Shown piece by piece: positions 13,880-64,000 of a stretch of 64,000 bases of DNA; positions within the stretch are counted from its first letter, which is position 1; each line of letters opens with the position of its first letter. The translations under genes were made by a program, and so were the position numbers. Under the pieces are notes generated by a model. It saw only the letters and a list, made by a program, of their open reading frames with translations, made no database searches and was not told the DNA's origin. Source of the DNA: Rozella allomycis CSF55 (taxonomy: Eukaryota); NCBI GenBank assembly GCA_000442015.1, contig KE561145.1, forward strand, positions 1 through 64,000, read 5' to 3'.

Positions 13880-14679
13880 TTAAAATAGTTTTACTATTGA
13901 GTTTTTGTATAAGAGAATATATGATAGACCACTGGCCAATGTCGATGCACCAATCACATATTGTAAAACATATAACAATGCTGTATGGGATAAATCGTAT
14001 ACTTTAAAGAATAAAGTACCTCCAATAAGAGTAATTTGAAGAGCAGTATTCAACTAATTGCGAGTAAAACTAAGGCATACTTTACTAATCGTCAATGGCC
14101 TGATTTCAATTGAAGGAGTCTTCAAGTCAAAAAATTTTCTGATTGTTTTCTCTAAAGGTCAGACTATTTAGATTACCGGTGGAGTTAACATTTTGTACCT
14201 TAAATACAAAGTAGCACCTAATAGGCAAATATCTCGACCAATAATTAACGCTGTTAACCATGCTATCATAAATCTTAGANATGCTATAATAAATCTTAGA
14301 TGAATTGTAGTACTTGGGAGCAAACAAATTTTCCACAATGATAAAGTACAGCAGCTCATAAGTACTTTGTCGGCAAGAGGATCCAAAAATGTTCCCAGTA
14401 CTGTTTTCTGTCTAAACTTGCGAGCTATATATCCATCTGCATAAAATAAGAAGACTTTATTAACCATACTGCGTCGCTTAGCCCAGCAAAAACAAATCCT
14501 GTCAGGGCCAGAGGGTAGTTTTGATTCAAGATATTGTATGCAATGTAAGGAGATAAAATTAACCGTGCAGTAGTAAGTGCGTTTGGAAAAGTATATATAT
14601 TTTCTCTTTTTTTAAAGATTGAAAATGCCATCCTATTCTTTAAGATTAACTTTGATGAAAGAAAAGTATTGGACAACAT
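13880..14679 (-). CDS. CRD1: cardiolipin synthase (CDP-alcohol phosphatidyltransferase)
   Basis: ENIYTFPNALT, SDAxDGYIAR, LGTFLDPLADK, IIGRD, SKLNTALQ; has an N gap and a probable 1-nt insertion near 13930. Confidence 0.85.
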
Positions 14680-14768
14680 GATGGAATTTCTGAAAAACGG
14701 ACAACGTTTTTGGAATAGTTGCTTAATTATTTAAAAAGCTATTGTGAAATGATAATTTTGTTTATATT

Positions 14769-17599
14769 ATGACCAATATGAAAGACTCTCGTAAAATTTC
14801 CGTAGTAGTAGATAGCAATCGAAGGTTTTCAGTAATGCCTAATAGAAATCACAAATATAATGAGGGATTGCATGAATCTTCGTTGAACCTTGATACTACT
14901 TTTGATCATGTTAATGATGAATTTTCAAAGAATGTAAATAAATGGGTGAAAGGTGATAGATATATCAAAAATACTTGAAACAGAAACAAAAAGAAGAAAG
15001 GGGAATAGGTAATGTTGAAGTATGTATTAGAAAGAATTCATGGACGTTGAAGATGACAAAAGCGAAAACATGATTACAATGACATTTGCTGATTCACTAA
15101 GAAATGTACTCAAAGGAATTGATAATGAACAGTGGGCAAGTTCAGAATTAAGAAATAAGTTGGTACAAATGAAAGTTCTGTAAATAGAGGCGAATATCGT
15201 CCTTTCGGAAGTTGCAATGAGGTTTTCACCACAAATGGGAAATTTAATACAAAAAGATTTTAATTCCATAATTAATAGAATATTTGTTCACAATGTTTTG
15301 AATAGTGTAAAAACTCAAGCTGATTTGTGTCTGAAAAAATCGAGATTGTATTTTGAAAGTATTGAATTATATTTGTTGTCACGAGATTGTAATAAGGCAG
15401 CTGTTTTCAGTAACGAAACGAACGACGACAGAATTTGTTCATACTTTAGGATGCAACTTTGTGAATCGTATAAATATTTTAATAAACATTCTGAAAGATT
15501 AAAAGTTGGAAAGATAATAAAAATTTGTCGGCAAGAAGCATTGAATGGAATCAGAATAGAGCCGCCCTCAGAAAAAGAAAAAATGACAAAACAGTTAAAG
15601 GATGTAAACTTAGTTTTTGATCTTTTTAGTTAAGTTTAAAGTTATCATTGTATAAAAGCAAAGCTAATTTTGCAGTTCTAGAAGAAGAAATAAAGAAATA
15701 CAAATTTCAAATACCGACAGCACCCTTGCAAAAGGATGTTGAAGAGGAAGAAATTAAAGAGTTGAAAATGGAAGACAATAAAATATTAATGATTGACCAA
15801 AGTTGGATTGAAAGGGATTTAAAATTTTTAACTAGTAGAAACAATGAGTCAGTAAACAAAATCCAGCAAGTGAAGAATGCCAATCCGTTGTTGATTGATG
15901 GGCATGTTTTTAGTAAATTTATGAAACAAAATGTAGCACTTCAATCCACCGACTTTGATTCTTCCATATTTGAAGTGGGCGATTTTATTTCAAAAGTATT
16001 TGAATCAGAACAAAAAGTTGAAATCAAAACAGAAAAACTAATTAATATTAAAGAAGACAAAATTGTAGAAGATGAAATGAAAGAAAGACCAAAAACTAAA
16101 AGAGAAAGATATTTGAGACCCTTAACCCACAGGACTGGGAAATTATCTAATCTAGATTTTGAATCTATAGAACTCAGAGTAATTTTGTTGCTAAATGAAG
16201 AGTAGCCGAAAACTAAAGATTCAATTGACAAGAAGATTGAAAATGTTCCAGATTCACCATGGAAAGAATCGGTAGTTGAAGGGAATGTTCTTAGATTAAT
16301 GGATTCAAGACTATCAAATAGACAACAACAAGAATCCATAGATTTATCGCCTAGCGATTTAATAAAAATTGATTTTATAAATGACACATCTGGAAATGAC
16401 GTTTCCTTTTCTATTTCTGATTTATTGCCTGGTATTTTTACATTTATCAAAAAGATTAGAAAGCGATGAAGAGATTTCGCAAGATCTTTGTGAAATATTT
16501 AAGCATTTTACAGAATCGGCGATGGATTCCTTGTTGACGTTAGAGGAAGATGAAGAAAATCAAATTTGCTCACCAATTTTAAAAGAAAATATTAGCGATT
16601 ACTCCATGAGATTTTTTAAAGGAGAAAGATTTGTTCCAGAAGATCAAATCAGGAAACTCAAAGATCGCAAGGACCAGGGTGAAGAAAGAAACAAGGACCG
16701 TAACAATGAAGAAATTAAAGGAAATGAATCTAAAAATAAATTAAAAAATATAAAAATTAAGACTCCAAAAACTGGGACGTTAGAAATTGAGGATTACTTC
16801 AAGTATCTTCAATTGCATAGCAATGATTTTCTTGATTCTTTAATTCTTGATCGATTTCTAGTTGACATGGCAGAAGAAACAAAAGAACTTTTGAAAATGC
16901 AAAAGCAACAAAAAGATTACGAATTAGAAAAAAAGATTAGAGAGGAAGAAGAAAGGAAGCGTAAAGAAAGAATTTCAGAGATGCTTCACTTTGAGAAAGG
17001 GAAATGGAATTCAAAAATCATCGATTACTTTGATGAAATAAAATCTAAAAGGTTTCCTAAAGTTTTCTTAATTTTATCTAGTCCTTTTTCAATCCAAGAG
17101 AGATTGGAAAGAATTTGGCAAGTTCTTGAGCTGGAAGACTGTGAAAGAATTTCATTGGCTATCAAATTTGGTAATCACGACTTTGATGGTAATAAATATT
17201 TACACCTCATTATTGTAAATGCTTTAAAATGCTTGGAAGAAATCGTTTCTCTTATCATTAAAAGAGAGGCACTCATGAATGACATAAAGGAATTTGAGGT
17301 TGAAGGGTCAAATCCAAGGTATTTTAATTTGTAATTTTAAATTAGGTATCTTATTCCATTCATGTCAATGTAGACGTTTTTATTACAAACAATACAGCTT
17401 TTTACAAGAATCAAACATTCGGCAAACGTTACTGCTTCAACTTGAAGAAATGCAGAACGTTCTAACTCCCTTGATCGAAAGATTTCAAAATACGCATCAT
17501 GAAATAATACGCTATAAAAGACAAAATTATCTTTCAAAAATGAAAAACGATTATCTTCAAATTCTTCATTTACTTGAAATAGAAAGGAGAAGCACTTAA
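14769..17599 (+). CDS. CCDC87-like coiled-coil protein
   Basis: C-terminal IQERLERIWQVL..ERISLAIKF..KRE..FEVEGSNPRRF resembles the CCDC87/MAP65-like domain. Confidence 0.6.
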
Positions 17600-17677
17600 A
17601 GTAAGAACTTATGTCTTTTATAACCAATGAATAAATCGAATCACAAAATAGTTTTAATTTCATATCAAATTTTAGAT

Positions 17678-19573
17678 TTATTGTGTAGAAATGAGCCTAG
17701 TAATTTTCCCAATCCCCTTTGTCCTTCCTTCACGAAAGAGTAGTCTTTTTCCAAGTTGCATGTATTCAGGCTTTTTAACGAATCTGAAGCGTACAAACGA
17801 TCGATCGCCTGTCCTTAACACCTTTGACTGTTCTTTGTCACTGTTGGAAACAATCTCCATTATAGTTGCTGTTTGTCGAACAGTCCCACAGTGAATCATC
17901 GTTTGATAGCTGGGCTTAATTGTTGTCGAATGATACAATATAAGAACTTCAGCCTCGAATTCTATTGCAACGTACCCACAAAAAACACTAGGGTACCTCA
18001 AACAACCAGGGTCACTAATGTACTCTGCCAAAGATGGAGACGGACATGGTTTTGGTAATCCTTGTTTGTCAACCACCACCATTCCTTTTCTCAATTGATG
18101 TCTCTTTATTTTTTTCAAAGCTAACGTCGCACACTGGCCAGCAACGGTAGAATTAACATTAACTCTTTTCCTGTGAATAGATTTTATTATGCAAGGGAAA
18201 AATACTCCATGTTCATCAGGCCCAAAATAAAGCGTTTGGCCAACATCAATCTTTCCAGATTGCAAGTTCCCTGAAATCACTGTTCCAACACCCTATTAAG
18301 TATAGAGTAATAAACTTACAGGCACTGAATAGGTTTCTGTTAATTGATACTCAACAGGATCTTCACTGTGGTATTCTTGATATATTGGAAGCAAATTAAG
18401 AAAGCACTTTAAAAGATCCAAGCCAGCACCTGTCACATTAGAAATTTGAAATATCGGACATAATCTAATTTAGAGTTACTTCTGCGTGTTTACTTTTCAG
18501 TGACTAAATTATTTACTACTAAAATCAAATCATGGATTGATTTTATAAAGACCGGGGTTTTCTTGCAACCAGGGCTTTTAACCATTTTCGCCAATTGTTT
18601 CAACGTATCATCCAAAACATTAGCTGGGCACATATCAACTTTTGTAACAACTATGAAAAATGGAACGTTCAACGCAACAGCTAAACCTACATGCTCTTTT
18701 GTCATTCCAACCACCCCTGCATTCGATCCTACTATAAGCATAACAAAATCTGGTGAATATCCAGTCATCCCGAATACACTAAGAATTCATTTCAAAATAA
18801 TTACGTCGTCTTTAAATACTTTTCATGGCCGGCAAGATCAATGAACGTTAAAAGTTTAGACGACTGCATTGACACAGACTCCCAACTCATTTTCCGCAGG
18901 GACACAATCAAACTCTCATCAGCAATTTTCTCAGCCTGATTTATTTCCCCTGTTTTATTTTCTAATTTTTCTATGACTTTTTCAATTGTTTCATTTTTCC
19001 TTCCAATTATACTATGTGTTGTTGCTGGACCAACAACATTCCCATGCTCATCAAAGCCAAGTATTTCCATGCCCACAGAAGAAGTTCTCCCTGTTTCAAT
19101 TTCATGCGGATGTTTGAAAAGTGTAACACGAGCTTTACCACGCCAATTTAAATGTAATAATTACCATTACCCGTCATCCTCCATTCCTTTGGTTATCACA
19201 CCCAAAGTGGTGCTTTTTCCTGCATCAACATTTCCCACCACTGCGACTCTAACCTCTAAATTCAAGTCTGTGACACTGTCAGCCTTGTAACGACAAAGAA
19301 TGACGGATTGTTTTGGACCTTTGTCATCAACTGATGTGTAAATAGGAGTCGCCACAAAATTCAATTCTTCTGACACAACCTTGATATTTTTCAAACAAGC
19401 TAGCAACGAAGATTCGGTAAATGATTCGTCAGCATCAACAAAATTAATAGGCAAAAGAAATTCACCGCGAACGAGATTTTGTTGAAAGAAGTCCTTTGTT
19501 TCCTTGTCGGGGTCACGCTTTAAAATCTATATCTTGTTAATTTGTTGTGATATACCTGAATAGCATCGTTCAT
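17678..19573 (-). CDS. GTPBP1: GTP-binding protein 1 (translational GTPase)
   Basis: [62 protein letters not shown]. Confidence 0.93.
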
Positions 19574-19709
19574 CTAACTGTGGCTGGGAGTCTAGCCATC
19601 AAATCAATAACATTCAATCGAAATAAGATTTCAAAAAATTCATTTCATCGGTAGATTAAAAAAATAAATTTATTTACACAGTACACTACACTAAACAGAG
19701 GCTGCCCTA

Positions 19710-20183
19710 TTACGCCATCGTTAAAGGGCTATTCTGGCGTATTATTTTACATATTTTCCTCTTCTTAAAATCAATTATCAAAAATCTTATTAGCAAAAAT
19801 ATGTCTATTGTGAAAAATATTGCACTAAGTCCAGCCATAATTCCGTCTGCTTTAATCCACCCGTTAGACGCAAACCAATCATGCTCTAAACTATTAATTC
19901 CAATGTATTGAGCCGAAATAATATTTAGTAAGATGATGAGATCTAATAATATTGTTAGTAAAATTAAATAATTGCATTGAAGCCTCTTTCGTTTTAGAAT
20001 AAAAGACGCCAAATTCAAAATCAAGCCAAAAATGCATACCAAGCAAGTAAACCATCTAGAATATACTTCAAATATCTCAAAAGGTTCCCAAAACTCTAGC
20101 TTGTTGATGAAGGCAAACATTGCATAGCCAGAATTACTTACGGCGAAGAAAGTAAACGAAAGGATATTTAAAAAATGGGCCAT
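19710..20183 (-). CDS. small four-TM membrane protein, unknown function
   Basis: Intronless 157-aa ORF with about four hydrophobic helices. Confidence 0.55.
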   Translation of the reverse strand: MAHFLNILSFTFFAVSNSGYAMFAFINKLEFWEPFEIFEVYSRWFTCLVCIFGLILNLASFILKRKRLQCNYLILLTILLDLIILLNIISAQYIGINSLEHDWFASNGWIKADGIMAGLSAIFFTIDIFLLIRFLIIDFKKRKICKIIRQNSPLTMA

Positions 20184-20290
20184 AATGCGAGGTAGTTTCG
20201 ATATATCTTTTGTAACCTTTGATTTTGATTCCACACATTCACTCTTCTTACAAGCTAAAAAGTCCATGCCTCTTTTCGTGTGGCTTGGGT

Positions 20291-21517
20291 ATGAAATCAA
20301 AGGCTTTACGATCTTTTTCTTTATTTGGCATAATAATATCTTGCCTTGCAGGAATAACAACTTTTTATCTGTATCTGTATATCCCCTACCTAAAGCCTAT
20401 TCAGACAACTTCCCAAATTCAAACAAATGGCTTAGAAGCAGTTTTGAACACTTCAATACATCACACACAGGAACTATATAGCTTGCATTATACAAAAACG
20501 GGATATAGTCCTCCGCGGTTAGCATTTTTATTAATGGCACATAACTACAGTTCAGTAGAAGGACTATTCAAGATCTTAAAAGTACTTTACACTCCATATC
20601 ATTATTTCGCAATACATTTTGACGAGAAAGTGACTCAGATAACATATCAAGGATTTGTCACTTTATTTAAACTGCATTTCGGTTATCCAACAAACGTACA
20701 AATCAGCCAAGACAGAATAAATGTTAAGTGGGGCGAGTTTAGTATACTAGAGGCAGAATTACTATTGCTAGATATGGCTTTCAAATGGAACAAAGAACGC
20801 CCAGCAGACGAAAAATGGGAAAGGTTGTTAATTTTGTGTGGGCATTCATTCCCGTTGCAAACTATTCAAAGCATTGAATTTGCGTTTTATGCGATGAACA
20901 AAAATATGAATATTCTATGGGACCTTGAAGGGCCAAAGAAAACATGTGAATATGGACAGCGCTATGGTGAATATTGCAAGAGAACGTCAGCACGGTGTGC
21001 GAATCCTGAATGCACTAAAATGACACACTCTTACAAAGACTTTGTTATTTATAAAGGTTCTCAATGGGTTTCACTTACTTTTGAGTATGTCAATTACATT
21101 TACGGGGAAGGGGCTGAGGACTTTCATGGGTTAATTAACTTTTTTCAAAAATCAATATTTGCACCTGAAGAATTGTTATTTCAAACCAGTATAATGAATT
21201 CTCGGTTTAATACGACCGCTGTGACTGGAGAGGTTGGAAACGAAAGCGCTGGATCGTCTGTTCCATATATGTTCAAAACGTGGACAGACTGCAATTCATA
21301 CCCTAATCCACGCCCCGGAGCCTCACCGTGCACACTTGGGAAGAATGATTTGAGCTCGATATCTAAAATGTACAAAGATGGATACCTGTTTGCAAGAAAG
21401 TTTAATCCCCTGGACGAACTCCATACCAAAATAGAAGGAAATCTAGTTCAAAGAATTGTAAATTCACATAGCGCTAAACAAGAAAATGCACAAATGGTTC
21501 AAGAAATATTGCAATAA
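20291..21517 (+). CDS. GT14 glycosyltransferase (core-2/I-branching / xylosyltransferase-like), type II membrane
   Basis: RLAFLLMAH, IHFD, VKWGEFSIL, KGSQWVSLT, PEELLFQT, LFARKF. Confidence 0.88.
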   Translation: MKSKALRSFSLFGIIISCLAGITTFYLYLYIPYLKPIQTTSQIQTNGLEAVLNTSIHHTQELYSLHYTKTGYSPPRLAFLLMAHNYSSVEGLFKILKVLYTPYHYFAIHFDEKVTQITYQGFVTLFKLHFGYPTNVQISQDRINVKWGEFSILEAELLLLDMAFKWNKERPADEKWERLLILCGHSFPLQTIQSIEFAFYAMNKNMNILWDLEGPKKTCEYGQRYGEYCKRTSARCANPECTKMTHSYKDFVIYKGSQWVSLTFEYVNYIYGEGAEDFHGLINFFQKSIFAPEELLFQTSIMNSRFNTTAVTGEVGNESAGSSVPYMFKTWTDCNSYPNPRPGASPCTLGKNDLSSISKMYKDGYLFARKFNPLDELHTKIEGNLVQRIVNSHSAKQENAQMVQEILQ

Positions 21518-21531
21518 AATATAGAATGTTT

Positions 21532-22188
21532 TTATTGTTCATTTTCTTGTTTTTTTGGTTCATCATTTTGAATCGTTTCACCTTCAAGGCGTTCAACTTG
21601 TGATTCCAGTGTATCCAGCTGTTGTTTAAAACTTTCTTTAACTTTTTCTTTAATTTGATTGCACTTTTCTTTAATTGCTGTTTGATCGAAAATCTGATCG
21701 GGCAATAATTCTGCCGGTCTGAAGAATAAACTGGGCATAGCGTTTGTCGACAGAAAGTTTGAATAATTGTCATATCTTTTCTCTAGATCTGCCGTCTGTC
21801 ATTAACTAAATTCACTTTAATTACAATTGTTTGTTCTAATTGAAGAGTTTCAGATTTTCTGGCATCTAGAATACGGGATCGTCTTTCTTTTCGTTCTTTC
21901 TCCATAATAATTCTTGTTTGTTCTTTTTCTTGTGCGAGTTTTTCTTTCAACTTTAGATCGATTTCCTTTCTTTTGTTATCAACGCCTATTGTCTGATTCA
22001 GATCCTGCTTAAATTTTGATAAAGTGCCTAGCATAACACCCATCATTCTTTTGTTTCTTTTTATATCTATGGGGTCATTTTTAATCCTTTTCTGTATGAC
22101 ACTAGAATATGACTCTTACTGTTAAACTCTCTGATTCTGCATTTCCTAGTCTCTTTGGAGCGTTTTCAATAACTGAAGGCAAAACCAT
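21532..22188 (-). CDS. PNN: pinin/SDK/memA domain protein
   Basis: KRNKRMMGVMLGTLSKFK; NFLSTNAMPSLFFRP. Confidence 0.8.
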
Positions 22189-22231
22189 TATGATAGAAAC
22201 ACTAAAGTTACTTTCTTACCCCTGTCCTCAA

Positions 22232-23132
22232 ATGCCTCTTGTCATAATAACTGGCTTTCCCAAATCCGGAAAAACAAAGCGCGCAGAACAGTTAAAAAAA
22301 TGGGTATTAGAGAACAAAGGTAAGTTTGTTTGGGGCCAAAATCTCGATAAAGTTGTACTTTTGAATGAAGAATTTTTGAACATCAATAAAGATCTATATA
22401 ACAGTAAATTTTATTATCAACATTTTAATAGATTCAAATGACGAAAAAAAGGTACGAGGCGCTCTTGTAGGAGCCGTAGAAAGATACCTTAATAAGAAAA
22501 CGTTAGTTATTTGTGATTCTATGAATTACATAAAAGGGATTCGCTATCAAATGTATTGTATTGCGAGATCTATTGGAACTCTCCAGTGTGTCGTTCACAT
22601 TTGCACATCTAGCGAAAATTGTTCAAAATTTAACTCGATCGACAACACCTACGACAACGAGACCCTCAAAAATCTAATCAGTAGATATGAAGAACCGAAC
22701 GAATTCAATAGATGGGATAAACCCCTCTTCAATGTTCAAGTAGACGATTTAGATATTCCTTGCGAAAAAATAATGAAGTGCCTTTTCGAAAAAGAAGCGC
22801 CATTACCTAATCTCTCTACGATATCAGTAAGTTCAATTTTTTTCATTGAAAAGAAACCTGCTATGGATAATGTTAAAAACATCGATCAAACTATTCAAAA
22901 GGCGACGAAAACGGTACTGGAGAGACTAAAGGATGATCCTTTAATTCAAAAGATTGACATTGAAAATGCATCCATTCCTGTTTTATTAAATGGAAATAGA
23001 GTGACTCTTATAGAAATGAAAAGACATCAACATCAGTTCATGAAATTGTACAATCATTTGCTAACATCAAACATGGATGATCAGACGGCTTTAAATTCTT
23101 TTGTTGAATATTTAAATTCTCAGTTTAAATAA
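22232..23132 (+). CDS. KTI12: Elongator-associated protein KTI12
   Basis: MPLVIITGFPKSGKT, DSMNYIKGIRYQMYC, RYEEPNEFNRWDKPLF. Confidence 0.93.
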
Positions 23133-23357
23133 ATTAGCATTCAATTTTTATTTTTAGGCCAACTAATTTGGCTTTTAGTTTTGTCATTTGTGGGGTTTTC
23201 AAAACTCTCAGAGGTTACTACTTGCGGTATTGTTACGGCAAGTAGTGCTATTTTTTATTGCCGTGTATAGAAACTAAAAAGAATGAATTGGGCTAATAAA
23301 GTATCATTAGCGTTTTAATTTTTCAGGTCGGCACATGTGGCTTTTCTGGTCTAAACA

Positions 23358-24180
23358 ATGGGTATTAAATGACACTTTTAGTTATCAAGGTGCTTTGTTT
23401 AGTAGGATTTTTTCAAGACTCTTTGGTGAAAAAGAATATAGAATACTTATACTTGGATTAGACAATGCAGGAAAGACGACAATTCTATACAGACTGCAGG
23501 TAAAACTTATTACCATAATGAAACATTAGCTCGGAGAAGTTCTAAGTACAATTCCAAGTAATTTTTTCATTGTATGATTACAAAGCTATTGGATTTAATA
23601 TGGAAGTTCTTCAATACAAGAACCTAAAGTTTCAGGGTACTCATAGATATTATACTTCAAACAGTTTGGGATCTTGGCGGTCAATCGAGTATACGACCGT
23701 ACTGGCGTTGCTATTACGCCAATACTCAAGCCATTATATATGTGGTGGACAGCACAGATAAAGCCCGATTATCAGTTTCAAAAGCTGAGCTGATTTCAAT
23801 GTTGGAAGTAATTTACATCAGTTCTAAACACAAAGGAAGAAGAATTAAAGGATGCCGTTCTTTTAGTATTTGCAAATAAACAAGATTTGAACGGAGCAAT
23901 GTCCGTAGCTGAAGTTTCAGAAGGCTTGGGATTATCACTTTTGAGAAATAGACAGTGGTGCATATTCAAGACAAGTGCTATTAAGGGTGATGGTCTCACT
24001 GAAGGACTAGATTGGTAACTTTATACCAGAAGCATCAAATCTAGGCTTGTAAATGCAGTAACCGGTAATACACAAGAAGCTATAAACATTGCACCTGCAG
24101 TAGAATCAGTTGATCAAAATAATGACACTGAGGTTGTTGAGCAAGTCGAAGAACCTAAATTGGAAGTACCAACAGAATAA
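23358..24180 (+). CDS. ARL1: ARF-like GTPase ARL1 with an acidic C-terminal extension (6 introns)
   Basis: [45 protein letters not shown]. Confidence 0.93.
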
Positions 24181-25953: not shown

Positions 25954-27079
25954 TTACTTTGAATTCCATAGTCCTAAGAGAATTCCAATGATTACAATGA
26001 TTATTGAGAGTAACACTGAAAAGGGACCAAAAGTCGAAATAATGCCTAAATTAGATAAACGATGTAAAATTACAGAATGAAAGGAATGCTGGAATTGAAA
26101 ATCTGGCCATTTTATTCAAATCTTCTAATTGGAATGCTACAGTCGCAATGACATTATCTCTATGATTTTTAGTTGAAATAGTTTTTAATAACAAGACTAT
26201 CTCCGTTAATGATATTATTTCGCGGAATTTATTCTTTATCGGAAGACAAAAATCAGGTTCGCCGTTTAGAGAAATAATTTGGAGCTGTAATTGCTTTTTG
26301 AAGGCCAATATTTGATTAGCAGTAATAGAATCTTTTAATAAGTCCACTTTTATCGATTCCATCAATTTAAAGTAATCTTTTTTGAATTCGTCCAAAATCA
26401 AGTCAAGAAGATCCTTCAACTCTGTAAGAATTATAGATGCACAGTTTACCCAATTTCGAAGACAAGTTCAGCTCAGATAAAATATCCAAATTGGTGAAAT
26501 TAAACGTAATTAAAAGGTTATGAGATGACGAATATTGAAACAATTTTCCATGCTGGTCAATTATACTCCTCCAGTTTAAGGAATTTGTGAATAACTATTT
26601 TGAAACTATCATGAGTTTACATGAATAATAAATTCTTTTTCATCATCGTTTGGATTTTCAAGATGCAGCCATGCGGCGTTTTCTGGATTGTCAATTAAGG
26701 TTATGAAAGAAAAGTGCCCGGAATCAAGCTCTTCAAAACTTTCTGCTTGCAAAAATCCTGATATGGGCGTATAAAATGTTATCCTATTGTATTTTAGGGT
26801 GACGTTTTGAGATTTTGGCATAGAAATGCCCATTCCGTCTTTGAAAGCCTTAAGAGATTCCACTGCCCATTCACGCTTGATACGTGAATCGGTAAAAACA
26901 TTTTTATTCAAAACATCGACTATTGGTTCATTTGATACTAAATTCTGGATTGCAGCGGTTAAGGGGAAGGAGGAAGGATCAGGAGTTTGAGACAGAAAAT
27001 TTGGAAATTTAATGTGAGGATGTTTAGAGAAAGATGATTTGGGTCTATTTGGCGAAGAATCCAAAGAACTTTCAAGCAT
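25954..27079 (-). CDS. divergent CorA/Alr1/Mnr2-like divalent cation transporter
   Basis: RITFYT..AESFEEL..F..LI..AWLHLENPNDDE N-terminal motif; two C-terminal TM helices; no GMN motif. Confidence 0.6.
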
Positions 27080-27141: not shown

Positions 27142-29003
27142 TTAGGACTGTCTAAACCAATAAACTAATTGTTCGGCGGATATTCTTTGCGAGGGATTTG
27201 GATCTAGCATTTTTGTGATTAGAGTTAAAAGTTCAGGCGATCGATCAACTTCGAAGGGTATCTGAGAAAAATCACCCGTCCGCAGCTTTCTCCATTCTTC
27301 ACCTTCGGAAGGTAATTCGATGTTTGAAGCGACTTCTAGAGCAATCAATCCAATGCTATCTTAAATAATTAGTTAATTTTACCTAAATATATCTGCAGGT
27401 TTATCGTAAAAGCCTTCAAGAATTTCAGGCGCGATATAAAATTTGTCACCTTCCGTGTCTACTGTGCTCAACTTTTCAACTCAAATGTACTATTTTACCT
27501 CGGAATCTTGACAAGAAAGGCCAAAGTCTCCTATCCTGAATCGATAGTCGCCGTCAATTAATATATTGGCGGGTTTGATATCGAAGTGAATGACTCCCGA
27601 CTGATGAATATGATAAATTCCCTACTTTCCGACTCAGTACATTATTACCTCTGCCAAGTCCGAAAGGATTCTGTATATTTCTTGTTCTGAAAAAAATCCG
27701 CCCTGCAGAATTCGTTTGTTCATTAAGGTTTCTAATCTAAAAATTTCCTAATACATTCAAAATTACGTTCCATTTGGGTATAATTCTGTTTCGATGTAAA
27801 GATAGCCATATTGTTCCCAGCTAGATAGTATTCTGACAATGTTTGGATGTCCACAAACTAACCAGAGATTTTCGACTTCTTCAAGATGTTTCAGCCTAAT
27901 TTTTGTATGACTGACCCTGGTTACCTGTCACACAACCCCTGAAATGGAGTTCGAGTTTTCTTTACAGNCCCCTGAAATGGAGTACGAGTTTTCTTTACAG
28001 CCGAAAATAAGCCATCGTCCCTTCGCCTTGTTTTATAGACATCGGCAAAAGAACCACTACCAAGGGACTCTACTATTTCGTAATGTGTAAGAAAATAGTC
28101 CTCCTTGTCATTGAAATCGCAATTCAAGAGTTCGTTCCGATCTTTCTGGGAGAAAAAGTGTTTATCGAGTATGTGGGGAAACATAGTTCGCCAAATAAAG
28201 ATTGACGAAGAAACGCCTCGCATTTCAGAAGAAAAGTTTTGCTTCTCATCGTTACGAGTAAAAAGTAATAAAGGAGACATTGCCATTTCGTTCTCGTCAT
28301 TATCGTTGTCATCAAATATCATGGAATTTCTGTCATCGTCTTCCCTTATCGGTGATGAATAAAGATTAAACGATTTTCTTTGGTCTAAAGGCGACGAAGG
28401 TGAGGCTGGTGATTGTTGAGGATCAAAGGGTGGAGATGACGATCTGACGTATAGAGGAGTTTGAAAAATATTATGTGCATGTCCAGGATGCGGAGTACTA
28501 GGATTAGGAGAACCATCTTCATCTGTTTGCTCTTCTTCTATTCCTGGCCTTCTTATTGCTTGTGACTCAAAAACATCTTCGACCCACTTGTTATTCTCTG
28601 GGGCTTTTGATAATAGCGAGTTCCTTCTCGGCGTACCAATACTCTGTTTAATAGTTGATTGCACAATCTGTGGTGTATACTGCAATAAAACTTTGCTGTG
28701 CATTTTCTTTGATGGTGTATTCGGTGTTGGAGTAGAAGCTTCTGAAGTCTTTCCAAGTAATCGCGTTTTCTTGGACAAAAATCCCGTGGATCGGAACGCT
28801 AAAGGATCTGGCTTAATTCCTTTCCATGTAGGTGTAGCATCAGGTGATATATTATTACTCGGCATTGAAAGGCGTCTTGCAAAAGGACTAGCACCAGATA
28901 TCTGCGAGCAGGTATTTTCCTTATTTTCCCAAAATAATTCTGAATCTTTTCCTTTGTTAGAAAACGGCGAAAACTCGTCTGTTGCTGGTTGTGTTAACGT
29001 CAT
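27142..29003 (-). CDS. WEE1: Wee1/Myt1-family kinase
   Basis: LGSGSFADV, YLYIETELYPNG, HFDIKPANILI, EGDKFYIAPE, ELPSEGEEWRKLRTGDFS. Confidence 0.9.
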
Positions 29004-34211: not shown

Positions 34212-34268
34212 AAAATTCAATGTGGCTAAGTTGCTAGTCTTCACAAAACCAAAAAATATAATGAATAA

Positions 34269-37200
34269 CTATTCTTTATTTACAGAATTAGATATGGAAT
34301 GGACACTGTGATTAATAACAGGCTTGGATGAGGTTTTTTGATTGACAGAATTCAGGCTCGGCGATTGATTCACAGTGTTATAATTCACCCAATACTCTCG
34401 GTTCCTTACTATGCCATCAATTATTATAGGAACGGGTGCAAAATTATTCAAGGTATCAAATAATGGCATACACACAATTTCAATAAACCCTCGCTGTGAA
34501 GATGCAACATTTGCCGTCTCGCGGTCCATAAACGCTGATATTGGTAGCCCAAGCTTTCTCTCCTGATCTCCTTGTCTAAAGAACTCTTCCAAAATTCGTT
34601 GCGTCCATATTTGTGTAATTGAAAATGACTTGGTTGGATTTGCTACATCTCCGCATTTAATCAAAATTTTGGCGAGCAAATTATGGTCATCCTTGTTCTC
34701 AAATGGAGAAAAAGTATTTCTATTGGAAATCTTTTTCGTTTAATTTGCGATTTTACCTTGGCCTTGAACGTGTTCACAATTTCAAAGTGATTAAACAAGT
34801 CAGTCGCAAGCACCTTCTCAATGACGCACATAGAAATTTACCAAATCTATTATAGATGATCGCACAGTCTTATATTCATGTTTAGGTAATGCAGAAAGGA
34901 AATTGCATTCAGGGGACTGCAAAATTTTAAATGAAGATGCTAAATGATGATTTTCTAAAACTGATTTGTCATTGTAGAGAATGGCCTTTTCATTGCCTGT
35001 TGCTATCAAAAAGTTGTTATTAAACCCTGGATGGTCAAAATCGTGTATTGCGGAAGCCACAAATAGAGAAAGCATATCCAAAGAGTTAAAGTAGCCCTTT
35101 AACGCTGGATGAGATAAAAAGAAAGACACTGCATGGAGAACATCGGCTGCATGGACGCTATTGTGGTCTATAAAACAAAACCGAAATGATTACATGGTAC
35201 GTCGGGATGATAGCCCTCCTCGATATGTACAATAAATTTTAAAAATAATTCTGTTGATATCTTAAATTGGCCTATAAGCCCATACTGTTGAAATAAATAG
35301 CATGTTAAGAATGCCAATGGTCTATTGCTGGTTGCTTCTGCAAAATCAAAGATGCCAAAATTCCATTCTGTTACAGATGCTATAATTGCATTGATTTTTG
35401 ATAACTGAGAAGTATTTTCAGGACACGTCTCTGGATATTCGGTAAGACAAATAGCATTGTAGCAATTTCCTTGCAGAAGCTATTAAATATATATTAAAAA
35501 ATTACTTGCTCAACAACGGGATTAACATTTTTAGGTAGTGGAGGTGCACCATAAACCGAGAAGGTAGATCCAGCAGCATCAGTCACAACTTGACTGACAG
35601 AATTAATTGTCGTTAGAGAGCCAGAAACGGCATTTTTAATTGCTTTTAATGTTCCATACTTTCATTTTACTTGAAATTGGTTGCGCTTGAACCGAAATGG
35701 ATGAATTCTCTGAGACCGTCTCTTTGTTGTTTAGATTGTCAAAGGCATTAGCCGATGTTTTCATAATGCTATTCCGTCTTTGTCTACTTGGAGTGCCAGG
35801 ATCCTTTATCGTTGAATTACTAGTATTTGAATTTATTAATAAATTGGATGAACTCTTCTTCTTTCTATTTGCTAATTCAGAAAAAAGCCAGGCCTATTTT
35901 ACAAAGATAAAAAAATTACTTCTTGCTCAGGATCTATTTTAAGTTGCTCTTGATTTTCAAAATCTGGCTGATTCAAGTTTCCAGAGTTTAACAATGTCAA
36001 TACATGAGTTAAAGTGTGAACTTGCCCCGAATTCAAATACGGATCTGCTAAAAGAGACCTTAAGGATGCTAATGCCTTTTCCAAAGGCGACTCTACATCT
36101 GCCAAGGCTTGATTGTTAAATGACTTTTTCAACCCCAGTAATTGTTCAGTTAGCTGACTATTTCTTAGATGCAATAATCTGGAATTGCAAAATTGAACCC
36201 TCAAATTCATTTCTGTTTCATATGCCACAAAACAAGAAATTATACCAGCCCCAATCAAACCCATATTAGTTGTTAGAAATCCTGAAACAACGTTGATCCC
36301 ATTTATGTTCATAATAGAACTGAAACAGATGATTACAGTCACAATGAATATTACGCTTTGCCAAAATCTAAATCTACAGAATATTATTAGCACTAGCATC
36401 ATAACCGACACAAATGTAGCTGACGTAAAGGGTGAAGAATGACCCTCAATGACTATGAATCTTATTATTATGCCAACTAGAATGGCAATGAATGTAAGGC
36501 CTAAGCCTATCATGGACATATTCTTTATGAAGAAAGGCTTTGGTAATAGGTAAGAGCACAAATAAGCAGCGAATAAAGGTGCCAAAAAACCCAACAATAA
36601 AAAATACAAATCTACAGTGAAATCATAAGAAGAGCAAAGAGTATTGCAAGGGCAAGATGAACAAAAATATCCACTCAAGTTTGTTTCTGCCGATGAAGAA
36701 CTTCTACGTGAAACAACATCTAGGTAGAACTTCCCTTGAGCAGGATAGGTTAAAAGAATCCATGTTAAGGCTAAAAGACTAATTAAAGATCCCGCTAGAA
36801 ATGCAAACCTCCACGCACGAATGATTCTTTCATAAAACCATTTTTGATATTCTTTTTCGACATCCGCATTTTTGAAACTTAGCGAATAATTAAACACTTC
36901 ATATTCCTTTGGCAACTTACCATTTGAGTAATTAAGAGAACTACCTTTACTCTTTTTTAAAGGATCAATTTGTTGCTGTGAATCACTGACTGATCCTATA
37001 AGATGGTCGCCAGGAGAATTTAAAGCAGAAAATGGATTGAATTCAGATTTCTGTTGCTTTTTGAGAACACTATTGGAGGAATTGTTTGAGAGTGACGACT
37101 TTTGTCTTTCTTGACGAAAATGACCAATTAAACTTGGTCTCTTTGTTGATGATGTAATTGCATTTGCATCTGAACTCATTCTTCTGCTAGCTTGTAATTG

Positions 37201-39212: not shown

Positions 39213-40347
39213 TCAATCGGGAAGAGACTTAGGTAGAACAGGTTTAGACAAAATTATTCTATTTTAGGTTGGTATATTTGAAAAATTACGGTTCATTTTT
39301 AAATTCTACAATATACTTTATATCATCGGGATAAAGTTGCCATGTATCAGCTTTTTAAGACTTCTTAGTCATCTTACGCAATTCGTGATGCAGGTCATTT
39401 GAAGTTAAAAGAGTGACACCAGCTTCATCATCTTGTTCAGTCTGAAATTGTTCCTTGTTAAAGTTCAAGTAAACCAATGGATCAACCAGTAAGACATTCA
39501 AATCATTACATGGCTCTCCATGATGATTTATTGATTCCATAGAGTCGATAACATCTAACTCTCGAAGAATCTCCCAATAGCTTAATTCTACCTCGTTGAC
39601 ATTAGATGATTGATCATTTTTGTGAAACCTATCCTTCTCATTCCTTTTGTATTTATAATAGTTTACAGTAATGACCTAAAGACGATTATAAACGGTTTAT
39701 ACTTTTAATTCTTTGAAGTCTAAAAGGTTTTCTATTATACAATGAGCTACATGTTGAAGCCAATCCTTGGAAGTCTTCAGATGGCTGCTAATGTTTATTT
39801 TATCCCCCGATTGCAATATGGAAAGTTTCTGGTATTCAAGTAATTCTGGGCCCGAATTTTCATCACTGGTTTCATTTTCGTCCGTAATATGGATTTCATT
39901 ATCGTATTTGGTATCGTGATACGCTTCATACCTTCTTTCCACCGTCTCTAAATAACTCTGATTAAATTCATCTTTAGAAAGTGGGTATTCATCGTCCAAG
40001 CCAACGCTTAATTCACTTTCTTTATGAAACAAATCTGATATGGAGTCTATTACGATGCATTCAATCATTCCTACAAGAGAGGGTGCATTATGCTAATACC
40101 TGAATTAATTTGTTGTTTTATTTGTAATATGCATGACAATAATTGCCATCCATCGTGAACTTGAACATACATTGGTTTATCCATCCAATGATTTCCTGAG
40201 TCTGCAAGTCTTAATCTTAGATGACATACCGATGTATAAAGTTTTAGAATCATTTTTTAAAATATATAGTGATATGTTTTCCGAATTAAAATTTCTTGGC
40301 AATACTAAATCTGACCATCGACTGTCGTCGTGAAAAATACTTTTCAT
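39213..40347 (-). CDS. divergent RecA/RAD51-paralog-like protein lacking Walker A
   Basis: KTLYIDSGNHW and CIVIDSISDLF after splicing; 5 introns. Confidence 0.5.
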
Positions 40348-40363
40348 AAATTTTGGCAGTAAA

Positions 40364-41404
40364 TTATTTTTTTATTAAAGAATTATCTTTTAAAAACTGT
40401 ATGAACTTTTCATTTTCAATCAATGATTCCAACTCACATTTCGATGATCGTTGCAACAATGCTGTAGCTTCACTCCGAATGGTCAAATCTTCGGAAGTTA
40501 ATAAGCACTTTAGGATCGATAAGTCCCGCTTAGAGAATGGTAGCATATGTCTTTCTTTTAAATTGTATCTTTTAACGCGTAGTGGTGATGATACCTTTCA
40601 AATTGATACGTTTTCAATCCTAATAGGTCTATTGACTTAACAGCTAAATCTTTTCTCGACTAAAAAATTATAATTATGGTCCTTACTCTTGATCCATTTT
40701 TATAGATTGAATAAATATGCAAACCATGTGGATCGTTATCGACTAGGGCGTATATACATACATTAAAAATACAGCTGTTAAGAAAATGAAGTAATTCTCT
40801 TGTTCTCTCGCAAGGATAGCCTTTCCCCTAGTCAACTTTTATCTACTTTATTACACATATCAACAAGGTATTGGGGAAATTGAACTCTTTTAGATAATTG
40901 AAAATTGTCTCCTTCTCAATAACTAAGATAGCGTCAATTTTTTCAATAAATTTAATTTTGCAATGATCCCAATTCTCTGGTATCTGTCCACCCTAATCAA
41001 TAAGAGAAATTCTGTTCATACATTTGAGAACTCAGTTGACAATTCATTGTATAAAAATATCAAGGGTCCCTTTATTAATCCTTTCCCGGCAGCCACGATG
41101 TGAAGTTCTTTCCTTGTTAGCCCGGTGAGTTTCATTATTTTGTTCAAGGCTTGTTGCATTTGCTTTTGCGTTCCAAATAATCCAACATTTTCATAATACA
41201 ATTGCCTTTAAACTATTTTCGAAAATGATACCTCTGATTTAGATGGCGATTGCTAGTAATTAAGTTAGAACATCTGTTCAAAAGAAATACCAGTCGGCAA
41301 AAGTATTCCGCGTTACGGACTATTTTCAATATTCTACTATCGTCTGTGCTGTTCCCGGTTAATGCAAGATACAAAGTCATTACAACCTCTTTAATGTTTT
41401 CCAT
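40364..41404 (-). CDS. SPO11: meiotic topoisomerase VI-A homolog SPO11
   Basis: RQLYY (catalytic Tyr), AAGKGLIKG, LVIEKETIF, GKGYP, ALVDNDPHG, LPFSKRD..KCELESL. Confidence 0.92.
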
Positions 41405-47846: not shown

Positions 47847-47919
47847 GGCTTTGTGGTCTAGGTGGTATGATTCTTGCTTAGGGTGCAAGAGGTCCCGGGT
47901 TCGAATCCCGGCAAAGCCC
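47847..47919 (+). tRNA. tRNA-Pro, anticodon AGG, intronless
   Basis: Acceptor stem GGCTTTG/CAAAGCC, anticodon arm CTTGC-TTAGGGT-GCAAG, T arm GGTTCGAATCC, followed by a TTTTT Pol III terminator. Confidence 0.97.
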
Positions 47920-49364: not shown

Positions 49365-49954
<590 letters not shown>

Positions 49955-52295: not shown

Positions 52296-54594
52296 CTATA
52301 TTTTATTTTTTAGCATCGATTTAGCAATGAACAAGTATTTGTCGACCGCTTCTTCAATTCTCTTTTCTAAACTTTTTCCACTTCCATGCCCAGCCTATTT
52401 GATTGTAAACTCATATTTACCTTTGTTTCAATCCTTATTAAAAGAGGATGATCATTTTTGGGCAAATTATACTGAAGTTCAGATATCCATTTGTATGAAT
52501 GAAGTGGCACAACTCGATCGTCATGATCACTGGTCATTACTAGCACGGGTGGATATTGCTTTGAAGAATCAACGTTATGGACAGGCGAATATCTTTTAAA
52601 AATGTGAAGAATGTATACTTTGACAAACATTCGAAATGCTCTACAATGTCTGGGTTACCATATTCATCCATCCAAGCATGGCCGATTGTAAATTTATGAA
52701 ATTTCAACATATCCAAAACCCCAACCTCGGCGATTGCACACCCAAATAATTCGGGTGCTTGATTTACACATGCCGCCACTAATAATCCTCCATTGGACCC
52801 ACCATTAATCGCCAACAATGAGGGGCAAGTGTAATTATTAGCAACAAGGTACTTCGCAGCCCATTGAAAGTCATCAAAAACATTTTGTTTTTTATTTAAG
52901 ATCCCGGCTTTATGCCATTCCTCGCCATATTCGCCGCCTCCACGCAAATTCGCGATTGCAATAGTCATATTTAGCTCATCTGCCGCTGCGGCCATGCTTG
53001 AACTAAAAAAAGGTGTCAGAGAAATGTTAAATCCCCCATATCCATATAACAGACATGGTGTTTGTCCATTTCTTGGGATGGATCTTTTATTAAAAATGAA
53101 CATGGGGATTCTCTGAGAATCTTTGCTTTCATAGAAAACTTGCTCTATAACGAATTTAGAGGGTTCAAACCCCACAATTTCATCTTGCCTCCAAATGGTT
53201 GGGGTTGTGGTCAAGTCAGATAGGTCATATTCATACACCAATCCAGGGGTATTGAAAGAATAAAACTTAAAAAATACAACAGTATCCTTTTTTCTGCCTT
53301 TAATGTAAGCAACAGAGCCAATATCTAGTGGAATGCAAGTCAGGTGAGTCCCAGACAAGTCAAAGACATCAATTACATTCTGTTTTCAAATCATGAATCG
53401 TTTACCTTGACATCTTTCATATAAACACAAATAAGTTTATTTTTTGCAACGCAGTAGCATGATTCTAACACGTCTGCCGCCTCAGGAATAACAACGTCGA
53501 CCTTTAAAAGAAATGTAAAATTAATACTAATGAAGTGTTATTGATGTCTATTTTAATCAATTTTTCCTTTAAAGCATTTGAATTGGTCTTCAAGTAGAAA
53601 ATATTATCTTCATTTGTAATGTATTCGTAACTGGCTTCAAAATCATCGAAAAGCTTAATTATTTTGTGCTTGGAAAAATCACAAATGTCTAATTGTTGCA
53701 CAAAAAGTTTGTTAGCATTTTCTGTAGAGCGACTTGTGGAAATGATTAGATACTTCCCATCATCAGACACAGTGGCGCTGGGCCGCCAATATGGCTCATC
53801 GGAATATTCAAATATTAAAATATCGTCTTTTTGGCAAGTTGCTAGTTTATGGTAGTACAATTTCGGAAACTTATTTAGGTTAGTTTCGGTACCTTTATCT
53901 ATTTGTTTTATTTGTGGATAGCGCTTTATATAACAAGGACAATTTTATTACAGTGTAGAAAAATCCATCATCATTATGTACCCAGGAAATCGAACTAAAT
54001 TTTACCCATTCAATTCTGTCTGGAAGCTTTTTCTTCTCCACGTCTTGAATTTGAATTGTCACCCAGTCACTGCCATTACATGATACACCAAAGGCAAAAT
54101 ATTTCCCAGATTCACTGAAAGAATATGTGTTCAAAGACGCACTCCCGTCAACTGCCAACTCATTTGGGTCGAAGAATACTTCTCCTGGGTCACTTATTGT
54201 TCTTGTTTGGTATATTTTTCGTATAAATTTAGAAAAGGTTTCTTACGAATGATTAAATGTTCCATCATTATAGAAATAATAGTAGAATTCACCCGATTTA
54301 AAAGGTGCTTCAGTTTTTTCGTAGTTGAAGAATTTTTTGAACCTTCTACATTCATAACAGTATTGTTACCTATCTTTAAGTTTGCTTCTAAGAGGATCAT
54401 CATTGATATACTCAAAGAATAGTTCATTTTGTGACGAAACAAATGCCTGGTGAAACTAAATGATTACTTCATACCCTCGTTTCATCAGAGTCAGGATTTT
54501 CAAGCCATGAATAGGGGTCAGAGATTGATCTACCACAACAAAGGTATTTAGAATTAATATCTCTCGTCACAAATGGAAAATTGAAGCTGCTCAT
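52296..54594 (-). CDS. PREP: prolyl oligopeptidase (S9A)
   Basis: DPYSWLENPD, LYGYGGFN, GGSNGGLL, DHDDRVVP, AGHG. Confidence 0.95.
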
Positions 54595-59251: not shown

Positions 59252-59833
59252 TTAAAATTTGGATGATATCGATTTCTTCTGCATTCCCCTTCGTTTCCTT
59301 GCATTAATGAGCCATGTCGAGACTTGCTTTATGCTGAGGTTAGCTCGTTTCGCCAATTCTTCTCTTTCTTTTCCTGTACAATATGGATAATCGCGGTGAT
59401 CTTTGAGCCAATTTTCCAAAACTATTAGTGATTCGACAGGATGTTTATTTTTGATTGTTTCAAAGTTGGATCTTTCACTAGACTGCGAAGATATTGAAGG
59501 GGAATTCGGACAGGATGATGGAGTTGGTGGACATGCAATAGAATTATTTGAATACTCAAAATTATCTGTTTTAATTGCTTCAGAAGGCCAAATGTATTGT
59601 TGTAGAGCAAATTCCCTAATCTTTTCCCTAGTTTCTTCCAAGTAAGACATGTAATCAGTTGGCAGGTAATCAACCAACAAGCGCATGTAATGATCCATAG
59701 ATAGTAAAAACAAGTTGAGATCCTTATTGTCGGTGTCACTATAATTTAGTGATTGATGGATAGTTTGAAGTGTCTCAATATGTCTCATGACAGTTTCTGA
59801 TGGGATTGAAGTCAAAGAGTTTGTCGTCATCAT
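59252..59833 (-). CDS. TALE-class homeodomain transcription factor
   Basis: LENWLKDHRDYPYC..KQVSTWLINARKR. Confidence 0.88.
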   Translation of the reverse strand: MMTTNSLTSIPSETVMRHIETLQTIHQSLNYSDTDNKDLNLFLLSMDHYMRLLVDYLPTDYMSYLEETREKIREFALQQYIWPSEAIKTDNFEYSNNSIACPPTPSSCPNSPSISSQSSERSNFETIKNKHPVESLIVLENWLKDHRDYPYCTGKEREELAKRANLSIKQVSTWLINARKRRGMQKKSISSKF

Positions 59834-59993
59834 TTTTCTCCAGGGGTTTACTCTTCATCTTGGCAAAATCTGGTAGGTGTCAAAGTCGTGTCAAAGGAAA
59901 TGACAGGGGTGTTAATTGGCATGATTAGCAAACGTGGCGCTGTCAACTCATTTTGACTTTTCTCGAAAAAAGGAATTAAAAAAAGATAAGCGT

Positions 59994-61784: not shown

Positions 61785-61959
61785 CTTTGAAATTTCGGAA
61801 ATTCCGCAGGGGGATTTTCTTCGCTCATCCTTTTATACTGCCAAACCCTGGTCTAGTGGCTTAGGAACAGTGTGCATTCAAACTTTCATAAAGAGATTGT
61901 GTTTTTTACATATGTTGCTATTTTTATCATATTTTCCCGCGCATTTGTAAACAAACTTA

Positions 61960-62697
61960 ATGCCAAAAGAAAGCGTTCTCGTTTCTAATCATTTGACAAA
62001 TACTTTAACTGTTTCTCAAAGAAATGTCTCTAGTGCTTTGTACGAAAGAATACAAAAACTTTTTCCAGGAGAAGGAATTAAATCCAATCACGCCCCAACC
62101 CCAATAATTTCTAAATCAAGTCCTGTTAAAGAGTTAATAATGAAGTTTGATACAAAATTTAATGGGCTGGAAAAGGAGTATTTGCTACTAACAAAGAGGA
62201 CCTCAATGCATCCACCAAATGGTGGGCAATCAAAAGATTCCTTTCAAAATAGTATAAACTACAAAAAGGCATATGTTGACTATAAAAACTGGATTGAAAA
62301 GAATGGTGGATTCCTTACTTTTTCTTCAGTCGAAGCATTATATGGAATATCCCAAGACGTCCAAAAGGAGGGCACAGTCCTAATAATAGACCATACTATT
62401 AAAGAGGGCACCATAATTGTATGCAATGATAAAGGGCGCAATAGTATCAATGAAATGATTATTGGCAATGTCGTGAATTTCAACAAAATGGAAAAGCTAC
62501 CGTTAGTCATAAATGACTTTTCTAATATTGCTAGCCATAATTGCCATTGGAATAGTTTTATGGACGATTCATCAAAAGCTATGAAGGATTTTGATAAAAT
62601 GATGAGAAAAGTTGCCAAAGAAGAGTCACTGCGGCGAACGTTTTCAGAACTAAAAAGCAGAGCTCAAAATTTGTCCAAAATTATAAGAGTGGATTAA
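61960..62697 (+). CDS. hypothetical protein
   Basis: Intronless 245-aa ORF, no recognised domain. Confidence 0.5.
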   Translation: MPKESVLVSNHLTNTLTVSQRNVSSALYERIQKLFPGEGIKSNHAPTPIISKSSPVKELIMKFDTKFNGLEKEYLLLTKRTSMHPPNGGQSKDSFQNSINYKKAYVDYKNWIEKNGGFLTFSSVEALYGISQDVQKEGTVLIIDHTIKEGTIIVCNDKGRNSINEMIIGNVVNFNKMEKLPLVINDFSNIASHNCHWNSFMDDSSKAMKDFDKMMRKVAKEESLRRTFSELKSRAQNLSKIIRVD

Positions 62698-62777
62698 TGT
62701 AATAAAATTAATAAACAATATGGCATATGCTGTTTCAATTTTTGAGTCACCTACCCCAGTTATAGTTTCAGAATTTC

Positions 62778-64000
62778 ATGTTCATATCTCTAGATGATTT
62801 TACACTAGAAGAAAAGGTGGGGGAAGGCACATTTGGGTATGAAGAGTATTAATTTTATTAACTTGAGAGAAGTTTATAAAGGACTGCACAAATCTAGCGG
62901 AGAAAAAGTAGCCTTAAAGCGTTTGTTGGTACATAAGAGAGAAACTGGGGTAATTAAAATCAAATATTTTTTAAAGTTTCCTCTCACCTCGATAAGAGAA
63001 ATTAGCGTGTTACAAAGCCTGATGCATTTAAATATAATCAATATTCACTCATTTTGTACTGGCCCCGGTGAATCTGGCGACGATATTTACATGGTATTTC
63101 CATACATGGAACATGATCTTACTGGTATTTTAGAGAATCAAACAATCAAATTGTCTAATTCCATTATTAAATGCTATATGAAGCAACTTTTTGAAGGTTT
63201 ATATTATATTCACAAAGTAAGACATATTTTTCATCTTGATGCTGGCTGGTTTTATCCACAGAGATATTAAGGCTTCAAATTTATTGATTGACAATAACGG
63301 AAATTTAAAAATAGCTGATTTTGGCCTTGCCAGAAAATATAATTCAATCACTTTGACTCCAGGTGTGGTGACAAGATGGTACAGGGCTCCTGAAGTATTG
63401 CTAGGATTAAAAGAGTATACCCCTGCTATTGATATTTGGAGTGGCGGGTATTTGGACTGATTTTTCATAAACAGATGCGTTTTTGCCGAAATGTTTAAAA
63501 GAGAGCCAATTTTTCAAGGTTCTTCTGACATTGATCAGCTCGAGTTAATAATAAAATATCTCGGAAATATTGATGAGCGGAATATGCCGGGTTATAAAAA
63601 TTGTATTGTTTCACCAAGAAGGCTAAACAATCAAGGAGGAAGCGAACAGTTAAGATTGTATCTAAATACGTACTATTTATCAAATTCTGGAACATTAGTT
63701 TTATCCAAGATAACACTGCTATCGAGCTAATAGAAAAAATCCTATGCTTAAACCCGCACACTCGCTTAAAAGCGTCCAGTGTCCTTACCGACAACTATTT
63801 CTGGTCTTTTCCACTCCCAATAAAAAAGGAAGAGTATTCGCAACAAAGCTATGTTATTTAGGATACCTTCATTCCCTAGTAGTCACGAAATCGATAAAAG
63901 AAAGCCTAGAAAACGAGAACTTGAAACGAAATATAACCGTATCACTTTACCATATATAAAATAGACATTAATTTAGGCAAGAATAATTCCATTCTCTCAA
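62778..64000 (+). CDS. CDK9/Bur1-like cyclin-dependent kinase (ends at 63964 or runs off the window after a further intron)
   Basis: [63 protein letters not shown]. Confidence 0.9.

Follow-up and report, generated by a model that had tools for sequence, protein, structure and literature searches.

Four conserved genes in a 64,000-nucleotide (nt) stretch of Rozella allomycis CSF55 DNA (GenBank assembly GCA_000442015.1, contig KE561145.1, positions 1–64,000 of the forward strand; hereafter the window) contain otherwise typical introns that, judging from the DNA and from homology, are probably removed by the major spliceosome at TG, TG, AT and, with a further "probably" at that last site, CG ends. 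The genes encode a GTPBP1-like GTPase, a CDK9/CDK12-like kinase (CDK), a cardiolipin-synthase-like CDP-alcohol phosphatidyltransferase (CRD1) and a prolyl oligopeptidase (PREP). The 3′ AG is among the most invariant signals of eukaryotic gene expression. An original prediction, made from the letters of the window, had proposed a splicing system with relaxed acceptors from seven such introns. The feature is real and unusual at the level of the DNA and most likely at that of splicing too, at four sites, a narrower set than seven. The literature searched, including the available parts of PMC8476143, PMC6349667, PMC13393502 and PMC9457484, yielded no account of Rozella introns spliced at non-AG ends, and none of the matches listed for Rozella with Prp18, Slu7 or U2AF named Rozella. 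According to its available text, one paper from 2026 curated Rozella models with unpublished RNA sequencing; splice sites are not mentioned in that part (PMC13393502).

Candidate introns in seven genes

All seven predicted segments were confirmed from the sequence, each starting with GTA and having the position, length and ends listed in Table 1. Canonical alternatives to each were taken as GT-AG or GC-AG introns of 18–60 nt that keep the reading frame. For the GTPBP1-like gene, a read-through translation in which the two in-frame TAA codons of the 27 nt were entered as X aligns to human GTPBP1 (PDB 9ypg) with strong identity before and after the segment, which itself falls in a gap exactly nine residues long, and no canonical alternative within these limits exists. 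The upstream CDK exon ends on GLYYIH, at position 116 of the Pkinase profile and residue 136 of CDK12 (6b3e), and residue 2 of the downstream exon falls at profile position 118 and CDK12 residue 138, such that the two exons abut; five canonical alternatives are available, each losing either GLYYIH or the HRD motif. Likewise, the CRD1 exons are contiguous on PF01066, with upstream residue 86/87 at profile position 42 and downstream residue 2 at position 45. The DxxDGxxAR motif of this enzyme is restored only by removal of the 29 nt and is destroyed in all eight canonical alternatives.

On this homology, the prediction that a non-AG intron is needed holds for GTPBP1, CDK and CRD1. In the alignment to porcine PREP (1o6g), too, the gap is exactly nine residues long and coincides with the fourth segment; the PREP segment is a probable non-AG intron and a weaker case than the other three, as longer GT-AG options are available to it. 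The supported non-AG introns thus number four among approximately 126 introns in the window. Counted from the donors of GTPBP1, CDK, PREP and CRD1, in no set order, the next AG is reached at 38, 45, 45 and 33 nt.

The three further segments are all in frame and free of stop codons. TAD2 and KTI12 read better as coding sequence, and CCDC87 is undecided. At TAD2, a helix of human ADAT2 (3dh1) aligns across the last five codons of the segment, with an HMA match, and the segment is most likely coding. The KTI12 segment is most likely coding as well, its unspliced reading being fully acceptable: several homologues of equal length share a glycine, and the public model P0122 retains the segment. Other KTI12 homologues are 8–9 residues shorter at this place, and the alignment to PDB 6qp0 reaches only up to the candidate site. 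For CCDC87 there was no Pfam match and no homologue that supported or opposed an intron; a haplotype variant inside the segment (17202 A>G) is synonymous if the segment is coding. These three are among 62 exonic 27-mers that start with GTA and end with BG, and they do not exceed chance, because 1%–3% of the 414 exonic GTA 27-mers match them on an intron model in which the acceptor is masked. With these examples removed, the predicted retention of the terminal G in six of seven introns becomes three of four.

Table 1. Positions of the candidate introns and other features in the window.
Feature	Coordinates	Strand	Length (nt)	5′ and 3′ ends	Phase	Remarks
GTPBP1-like GTPase intron	19144–19170	−	27	GTAATG...TTG	2	GT..TG
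Exon directly downstream of the GTPBP1 intron	18805–19143	−				Conserved relative to 9ypg
CDK9/CDK12-like kinase intron	63217–63244	+	28	GTAAGA...CTG	0	GT..TG
CRD1-like CDP-alcohol phosphatidyltransferase intron	14441–14469	−	29	GTATGG...TAT	0	GT..AT
PREP intron	54220–54246	−	27	GTAAGA...ACG	2	GT..CG, probable; one in-frame TAA
CCDC87-like candidate	17189–17215	+	27	GTA...TG		GT..TG, undecided
TAD2 candidate	49401–49427	+	27	GTA...TG		GT..TG, most likely coding
KTI12 candidate	22320–22346	+	27	GTA...CG		GT..CG, most likely coding
tRNA-Pro, anticodon AGG	47847–47919	+				Sole Rfam match in the window; between protein genes

Intron lengths and the choice of the 3′ end

The window has a GC content of 34% and uses the standard code; its exons are long and open, and the AT-rich segments between them very short. 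The exons of the window are matched identically, exon for exon, by public R. allomycis CSF55 proteins; among these are the models of the GTPBP1-like protein (P0002), the kinase (P0145) and KTI12 (P0122). The intron set was obtained with a dynamic-programming gene finder that allowed canonical GT-AG introns only, and it comprised 124 introns, where the original prediction had counted about 160 by hand. Lengths of 26–29 nt were found for 114 of the 124, with 37, 27, 27 and 23 introns of 26, 27, 28 and 29 nt, respectively, and 92% start with GTA (A at +3). Among the 118 introns of 25–30 nt, the 3′ trinucleotide is TAG in 68, AAG in 34, CAG in 12 and GAG in 4, and no branch-site motif is visible within the gene-finder set. 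Window-wide tallies show the same preference: GTAA...TAG pairs at 26, 27, 28 and 29 nt number 22, 20, 10 and 16 over a background of about 3–11, and GT...AG segments between open frames peak at 26–29 nt. The available parts of earlier papers give about 2.5 introns per kb of Rozella coding sequence (PMC8476143) and mention, for one Rozella gene, intron lengths of about 30 nt (Whelan et al. 2018, PMC6349667). Odd-length GT-AG calls of 58 nt (62689–62746, +; 40340–40397, −), 36 nt (34234–34269, −) and 22 nt (25974–25995, −) lie in unconserved regions and may be further non-canonical introns or model errors.

Apart from their 3′ ends, the four supported introns are typical of this genome. Their lengths are canonical and their AT content is 0.68–0.81, compared with a canonical mean of 0.74. 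Scored by position against exons with the acceptor masked, they reach values of 0.26–4.66, inside the range of real introns (canonical leave-one-out mean 1.43, standard deviation 1.96; mean of exonic GTA 27-mers −2.39), although the distinction that this model draws between real introns and exonic GTA 27-mers is weak. Minimum free energies of folding, from −1.9 to −4.4 kcal/mol, are ordinary in comparison with the canonical mean of −3.28 (standard deviation 1.96, n=107), and the folding comparison revealed no structure pairing the intron ends in any of the four. The donors begin with GT, as U2-type 5′ sites do, and sit where homology breaks; the terminal AG of U2-type introns is replaced by TG, TG, AT and CG. 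Furthermore, G occupies position +5 in three of the four introns and in 20 of 107 canonical ones (P ~0.02, post hoc and on a small sample), and the stronger 5′ site that this implies may compensate for a weak 3′ end.

How the 3′ end is chosen can be read in part from the canonical introns. At distances of 26, 27 and 29 nt after the donor an AG is never left unused, and at 24–25 nt nine are skipped. There are 17 introns with a second AG at 24–31 nt, 11 of them informative about frame, and all 11 use whichever AG comes first from 26 nt onwards. Given the tight upper bound on length, AG is maintained inside a four-base-wide window. It is the tight 26–29 nt lengths and this choice of AG that suggest a molecular ruler, an idea drawn from lengths obtained with a gene finder whose own length penalty favours 26–29 nt. 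The predicted setting of the 3′ site by distance is supported by the lengths and by the choice of AG, and CRD1 departs from it in the manner described below.

The following mechanism would account for these observations. The window is nuclear DNA of R. allomycis or of a near-identical strain, and its introns are 26–29 nt long and AT-rich, start with GTA and normally end in (T/A)AG; the major (U2-type) spliceosome would most likely remove the four introns at exactly their TG, TG, AT and CG ends. The 3′ site would be taken within a window four bases wide whose distance from the 5′ site is fixed, as the lengths suggest. An AG would be preferred if it lies there, and a BG or HAU end would be ligated if none does. 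Since this window is so narrow that no AG competes, we favour ligation at the best end inside it. We infer ligation in vivo at these ends, its efficiency and any change in a step-II factor.

A more far-reaching form of the original prediction is tentative, and we regard it as possible rather than probable. It would have the Rozella spliceosome work with a 26–29 nt ruler and no strict need for AG, a few percent of introns across the genome, some of them in essential conserved genes, constitutively using BG or HAU ends. Rozella would then be a natural counterpart of yeast lacking Prp18, and a step-II fidelity factor might be altered or absent. Were a wild organism to splice conserved genes productively at TG, AT and CG ends, this would show that AG recognition can relax in a viable cell if introns are kept to a narrow length, and Rozella would be a natural system in which to study exon-ligation fidelity and the roles of Prp18, Slu7, Prp22 and Prp8.

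Independent DNA and alternative explanations

The region 14300–24000 was compared with four DNA runs (X3, X5, X6 and X7), each giving contigs without joints. X3 derives from another sample and study than the probable source of the window and has a depth of 200–290. Its contig over the CRD1 site (14300–14579) has zero differences from the window, its contig over the GTPBP1 intron (19108–20520) differs only at 20203, that over the CCDC87 site only at 17268 and 17684, and that over the KTI12 site only at 23816. The original prediction had proposed a check of its acceptor bases against genomic reads; within the region compared, the non-AG ends were reproduced at all four sites (GTPBP1, CRD1, CCDC87 and KTI12), where base errors are excluded. 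At 17268 all four runs differ from the window, and at 17684, 20203 and 23816 two or three do; at these positions the assembly of the window itself probably carries errors or private variants. In X7, AAA is inserted behind 16688.

Patchy differences of about 1–1.4% set X5, X6 and X7 apart from the window, so that two or more haplotypes or strains are present. Over CRD1, 22 differences were counted in the X5 contig, all of them listed, one inside the intron and none at the acceptor, and the AT end is kept. Over 18873–19107, X3 yields minor contigs at about 30% of depth, with 10 variants in these 235 nt, and it is unbroken across the GTPBP1 intron although split at these adjacent variants. Haplotype differences were taken from the 40 of 144 variants listed in the four-run comparison. 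Ten of those listed fall in the exon that follows the GTPBP1 intron, eight synonymous and two non-synonymous (P ~0.0004–0.0016 if between 1/4 and 3/10 of changes are synonymous by chance), which indicates that the GTPBP1-like gene is under purifying selection while carrying the TG end. The neighbouring plus-strand gene has 16 synonymous and 4 non-synonymous haplotype differences. Beyond R. allomycis, a metagenome scan for relatives gave one locus from 135 pattern matches, without an orthologous intron to compare; this locus (L001, 3001–4302, on a contig of 27% GC) holds an intron-less GTPBP1 homologue of 33% identity.

Several observations weigh against splicing at non-AG ends as set out above. 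The support consists of DNA and homology, from which we infer the use of the junctions. Reproduction in independent DNA spans two of the four supported sites, GTPBP1 and CRD1, leaving aside CDK and PREP, and the second haplotype at the GTPBP1 acceptor is read from the unbroken X3 contig, not from the full list of variants. For PREP, GT-AG introns of 45, 51 and 54 nt would also keep the frame, at the cost of 6–9 aligned residues. CRD1 needs the AT at 29 nt despite a TG at 30 nt, where ending would break the frame, and a CAG at 33 nt; a rule by which the intron ends on the first suitable G from 26 nt onwards accounts for three of the four supported sites and fails at this one. Exonic decoys of the form GTA..AG at 26–29 nt, counted over the exons of 31 gene models, number 101, compared with 103.6 ± 9.5 in codon-shuffled controls and with 116 real introns. 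Since the decoys are as numerous as in the shuffled controls, GTA, distance and end cannot be the whole code and a further cue is needed.

Unbiased counting also falls short. The gene finder gives no unbiased count of non-canonical introns: run with a non-canonical class at a penalty of 6, it made 29 non-GT-AG jumps, of which only two start from GT donors; the GTPBP1 site was called as well, but in a shifted register. As a census this run was rejected, its yield being close to chance and the CDK, PREP and CRD1 introns being missed. Among 12 breaks between neighbouring models on the same strand, a solution with a GTA donor was found only at GTPBP1. One extra GT..TG candidate (28449–28475, +) was set aside, as the surrounding translations look low-complexity or antisense. 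Lastly, the window-wide tally shows no visible peak or excess of GT..TG at 26–29 nt, a tally in which a few cases would stay hidden.

This missing excess also fits the most serious alternative, in which the four ends are sporadic, slightly harmful acceptor mutations kept under weak selection in a parasite, with inefficient ligation or reduced output and ordinary machinery. We consider this explanation unlikely but far from negligible. Only four of about 126 introns are affected, a haplotype divergence of 1–1.4% lets a few hits on acceptor dinucleotides be expected from mutation alone, and the enrichment of G at +5 could compensate for a weak 3′ end. However, the AT end of CRD1 is common to two diverged haplotypes and the TG end of GTPBP1 lies in an unbroken X3 contig, so these are no recent private lesions, and purifying selection acts on the exon that follows the TG intron (8:2). 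A change from AG to TG abolishes use of the site in most eukaryotes. Some tolerance of such ends would therefore be required even if mutation were their source.

It is improbable that the public GT-AG models are correct and the motif matches in the removed or replaced stretches coincidental. Model P0002 (18805–19526, −) places a 69-nt GT-AG intron at the GTPBP1 site, where it is the nearest canonical option, P0145 (62766–63457, +) a 25-nt one in the kinase gene, one of the five canonical alternatives there, and PREP offers the in-frame options of 45–54 nt. Nevertheless, P0002 drops 14 residues that align to human GTPBP1 right after the P-loop, and P0145 has other residues in place of GLYYIH, although the DNA encodes this motif in frame and with the same letters as CDK9. 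Moreover, 69 nt is far beyond the length range of the canonical introns, and the 25-nt and 45-nt introns among the 124 canonical calls are these CDK and PREP alternatives themselves. A forced GT-AG junction thus costs conserved residues in both of the public models examined (GTPBP1 and CDK). This has a practical side, R. allomycis being in wide comparative use as the sister lineage of Microsporidia.

Slightly less probable again are base-call errors, or one null allele beside an intact second allele, as the origin of the non-AG ends. The window contains 11 single N bases, 10 of them at 8356–14280 and one at 27967, the cluster suggesting a lower-quality stretch at 8356–14280; every run covering 17268, 17684, 20203 and 23816 differs from the window at some of these positions, and CDK and PREP lie outside the region that was independently compared. 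In contrast, X3 reproduces the GTPBP1, CRD1, CCDC87 and KTI12 sites exactly, it splits the haplotypes at 18873–19107 yet is unbroken over 19108–20520, and none of the 22 X5 differences falls at the CRD1 acceptor. The gene finder made few predictions in 8356–14280, and it missed the CRD1 gene.

Handling by the minor spliceosome, by an endonuclease and ligase, as structure-defined nonconventional introns or by translational bypass deserves hardly any credence: minor-type introns tolerate varied 3′ ends, but the 5′ ends here resemble the canonical set, unlike the minor-type consensus, the folding energies are ordinary, the ends do not pair and the lengths are exactly canonical.

Comparison with known systems

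Splicing at non-AG ends by the major spliceosome, the reading we prefer, is best set against the canonical mini-introns of R. allomycis itself. These start with GTA, are 27–29 nt long and AT-rich and lack a branch motif; the exon context is common to both sets, and the four introns differ from them in the last two bases (TG, TG, CG and AT).

Minor (U12-type) introns accept several 3′ dinucleotides and have the consensus RTATCCTT at the 5′ site and TCCTTAAC at the branch. Neither an RTATCCTT-like 5′ site nor a TCCTTAAC-like branch is present in any of the four Rozella introns. Similarly, nonconventional introns of the euglenid type are characterised by a stable structure in which pairing draws the two ends of the intron close, whereas the folding energies of the Rozella introns lie inside the canonical distribution.

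The tiny introns of Paramecium and other ciliates have very narrow lengths, a GTA start and little internal signal, and are described as GT-AG. Rozella introns are likewise narrow in length, start with GTA and are poor in signal. They differ in belonging to a fungal lineage with the standard code, under which open exons can exceed 200 codons.

A further likeness is to Saccharomyces cerevisiae without Prp18, in which BG and HAU 3′ sites are activated (Roy et al. 2023, PMC10711555, as far as its available text goes). The same part of that paper describes non-YAG sites there as used insofar as they dock in the active site where the normal one otherwise would (PMC10711555). In Rozella, too, use would depend on what is able to dock once a normal site offers no competition. 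As the original prediction held, the UUG, CUG, ACG and UAU ends that homology requires in Rozella fit the BG and HAU classes of the yeast prp18-Δ mutant, insofar as these are given in that text. In yeast, however, these are alternative sites used at a low level in a mutant, whereas in Rozella each would be the sole productive site of a conserved gene in a wild organism.

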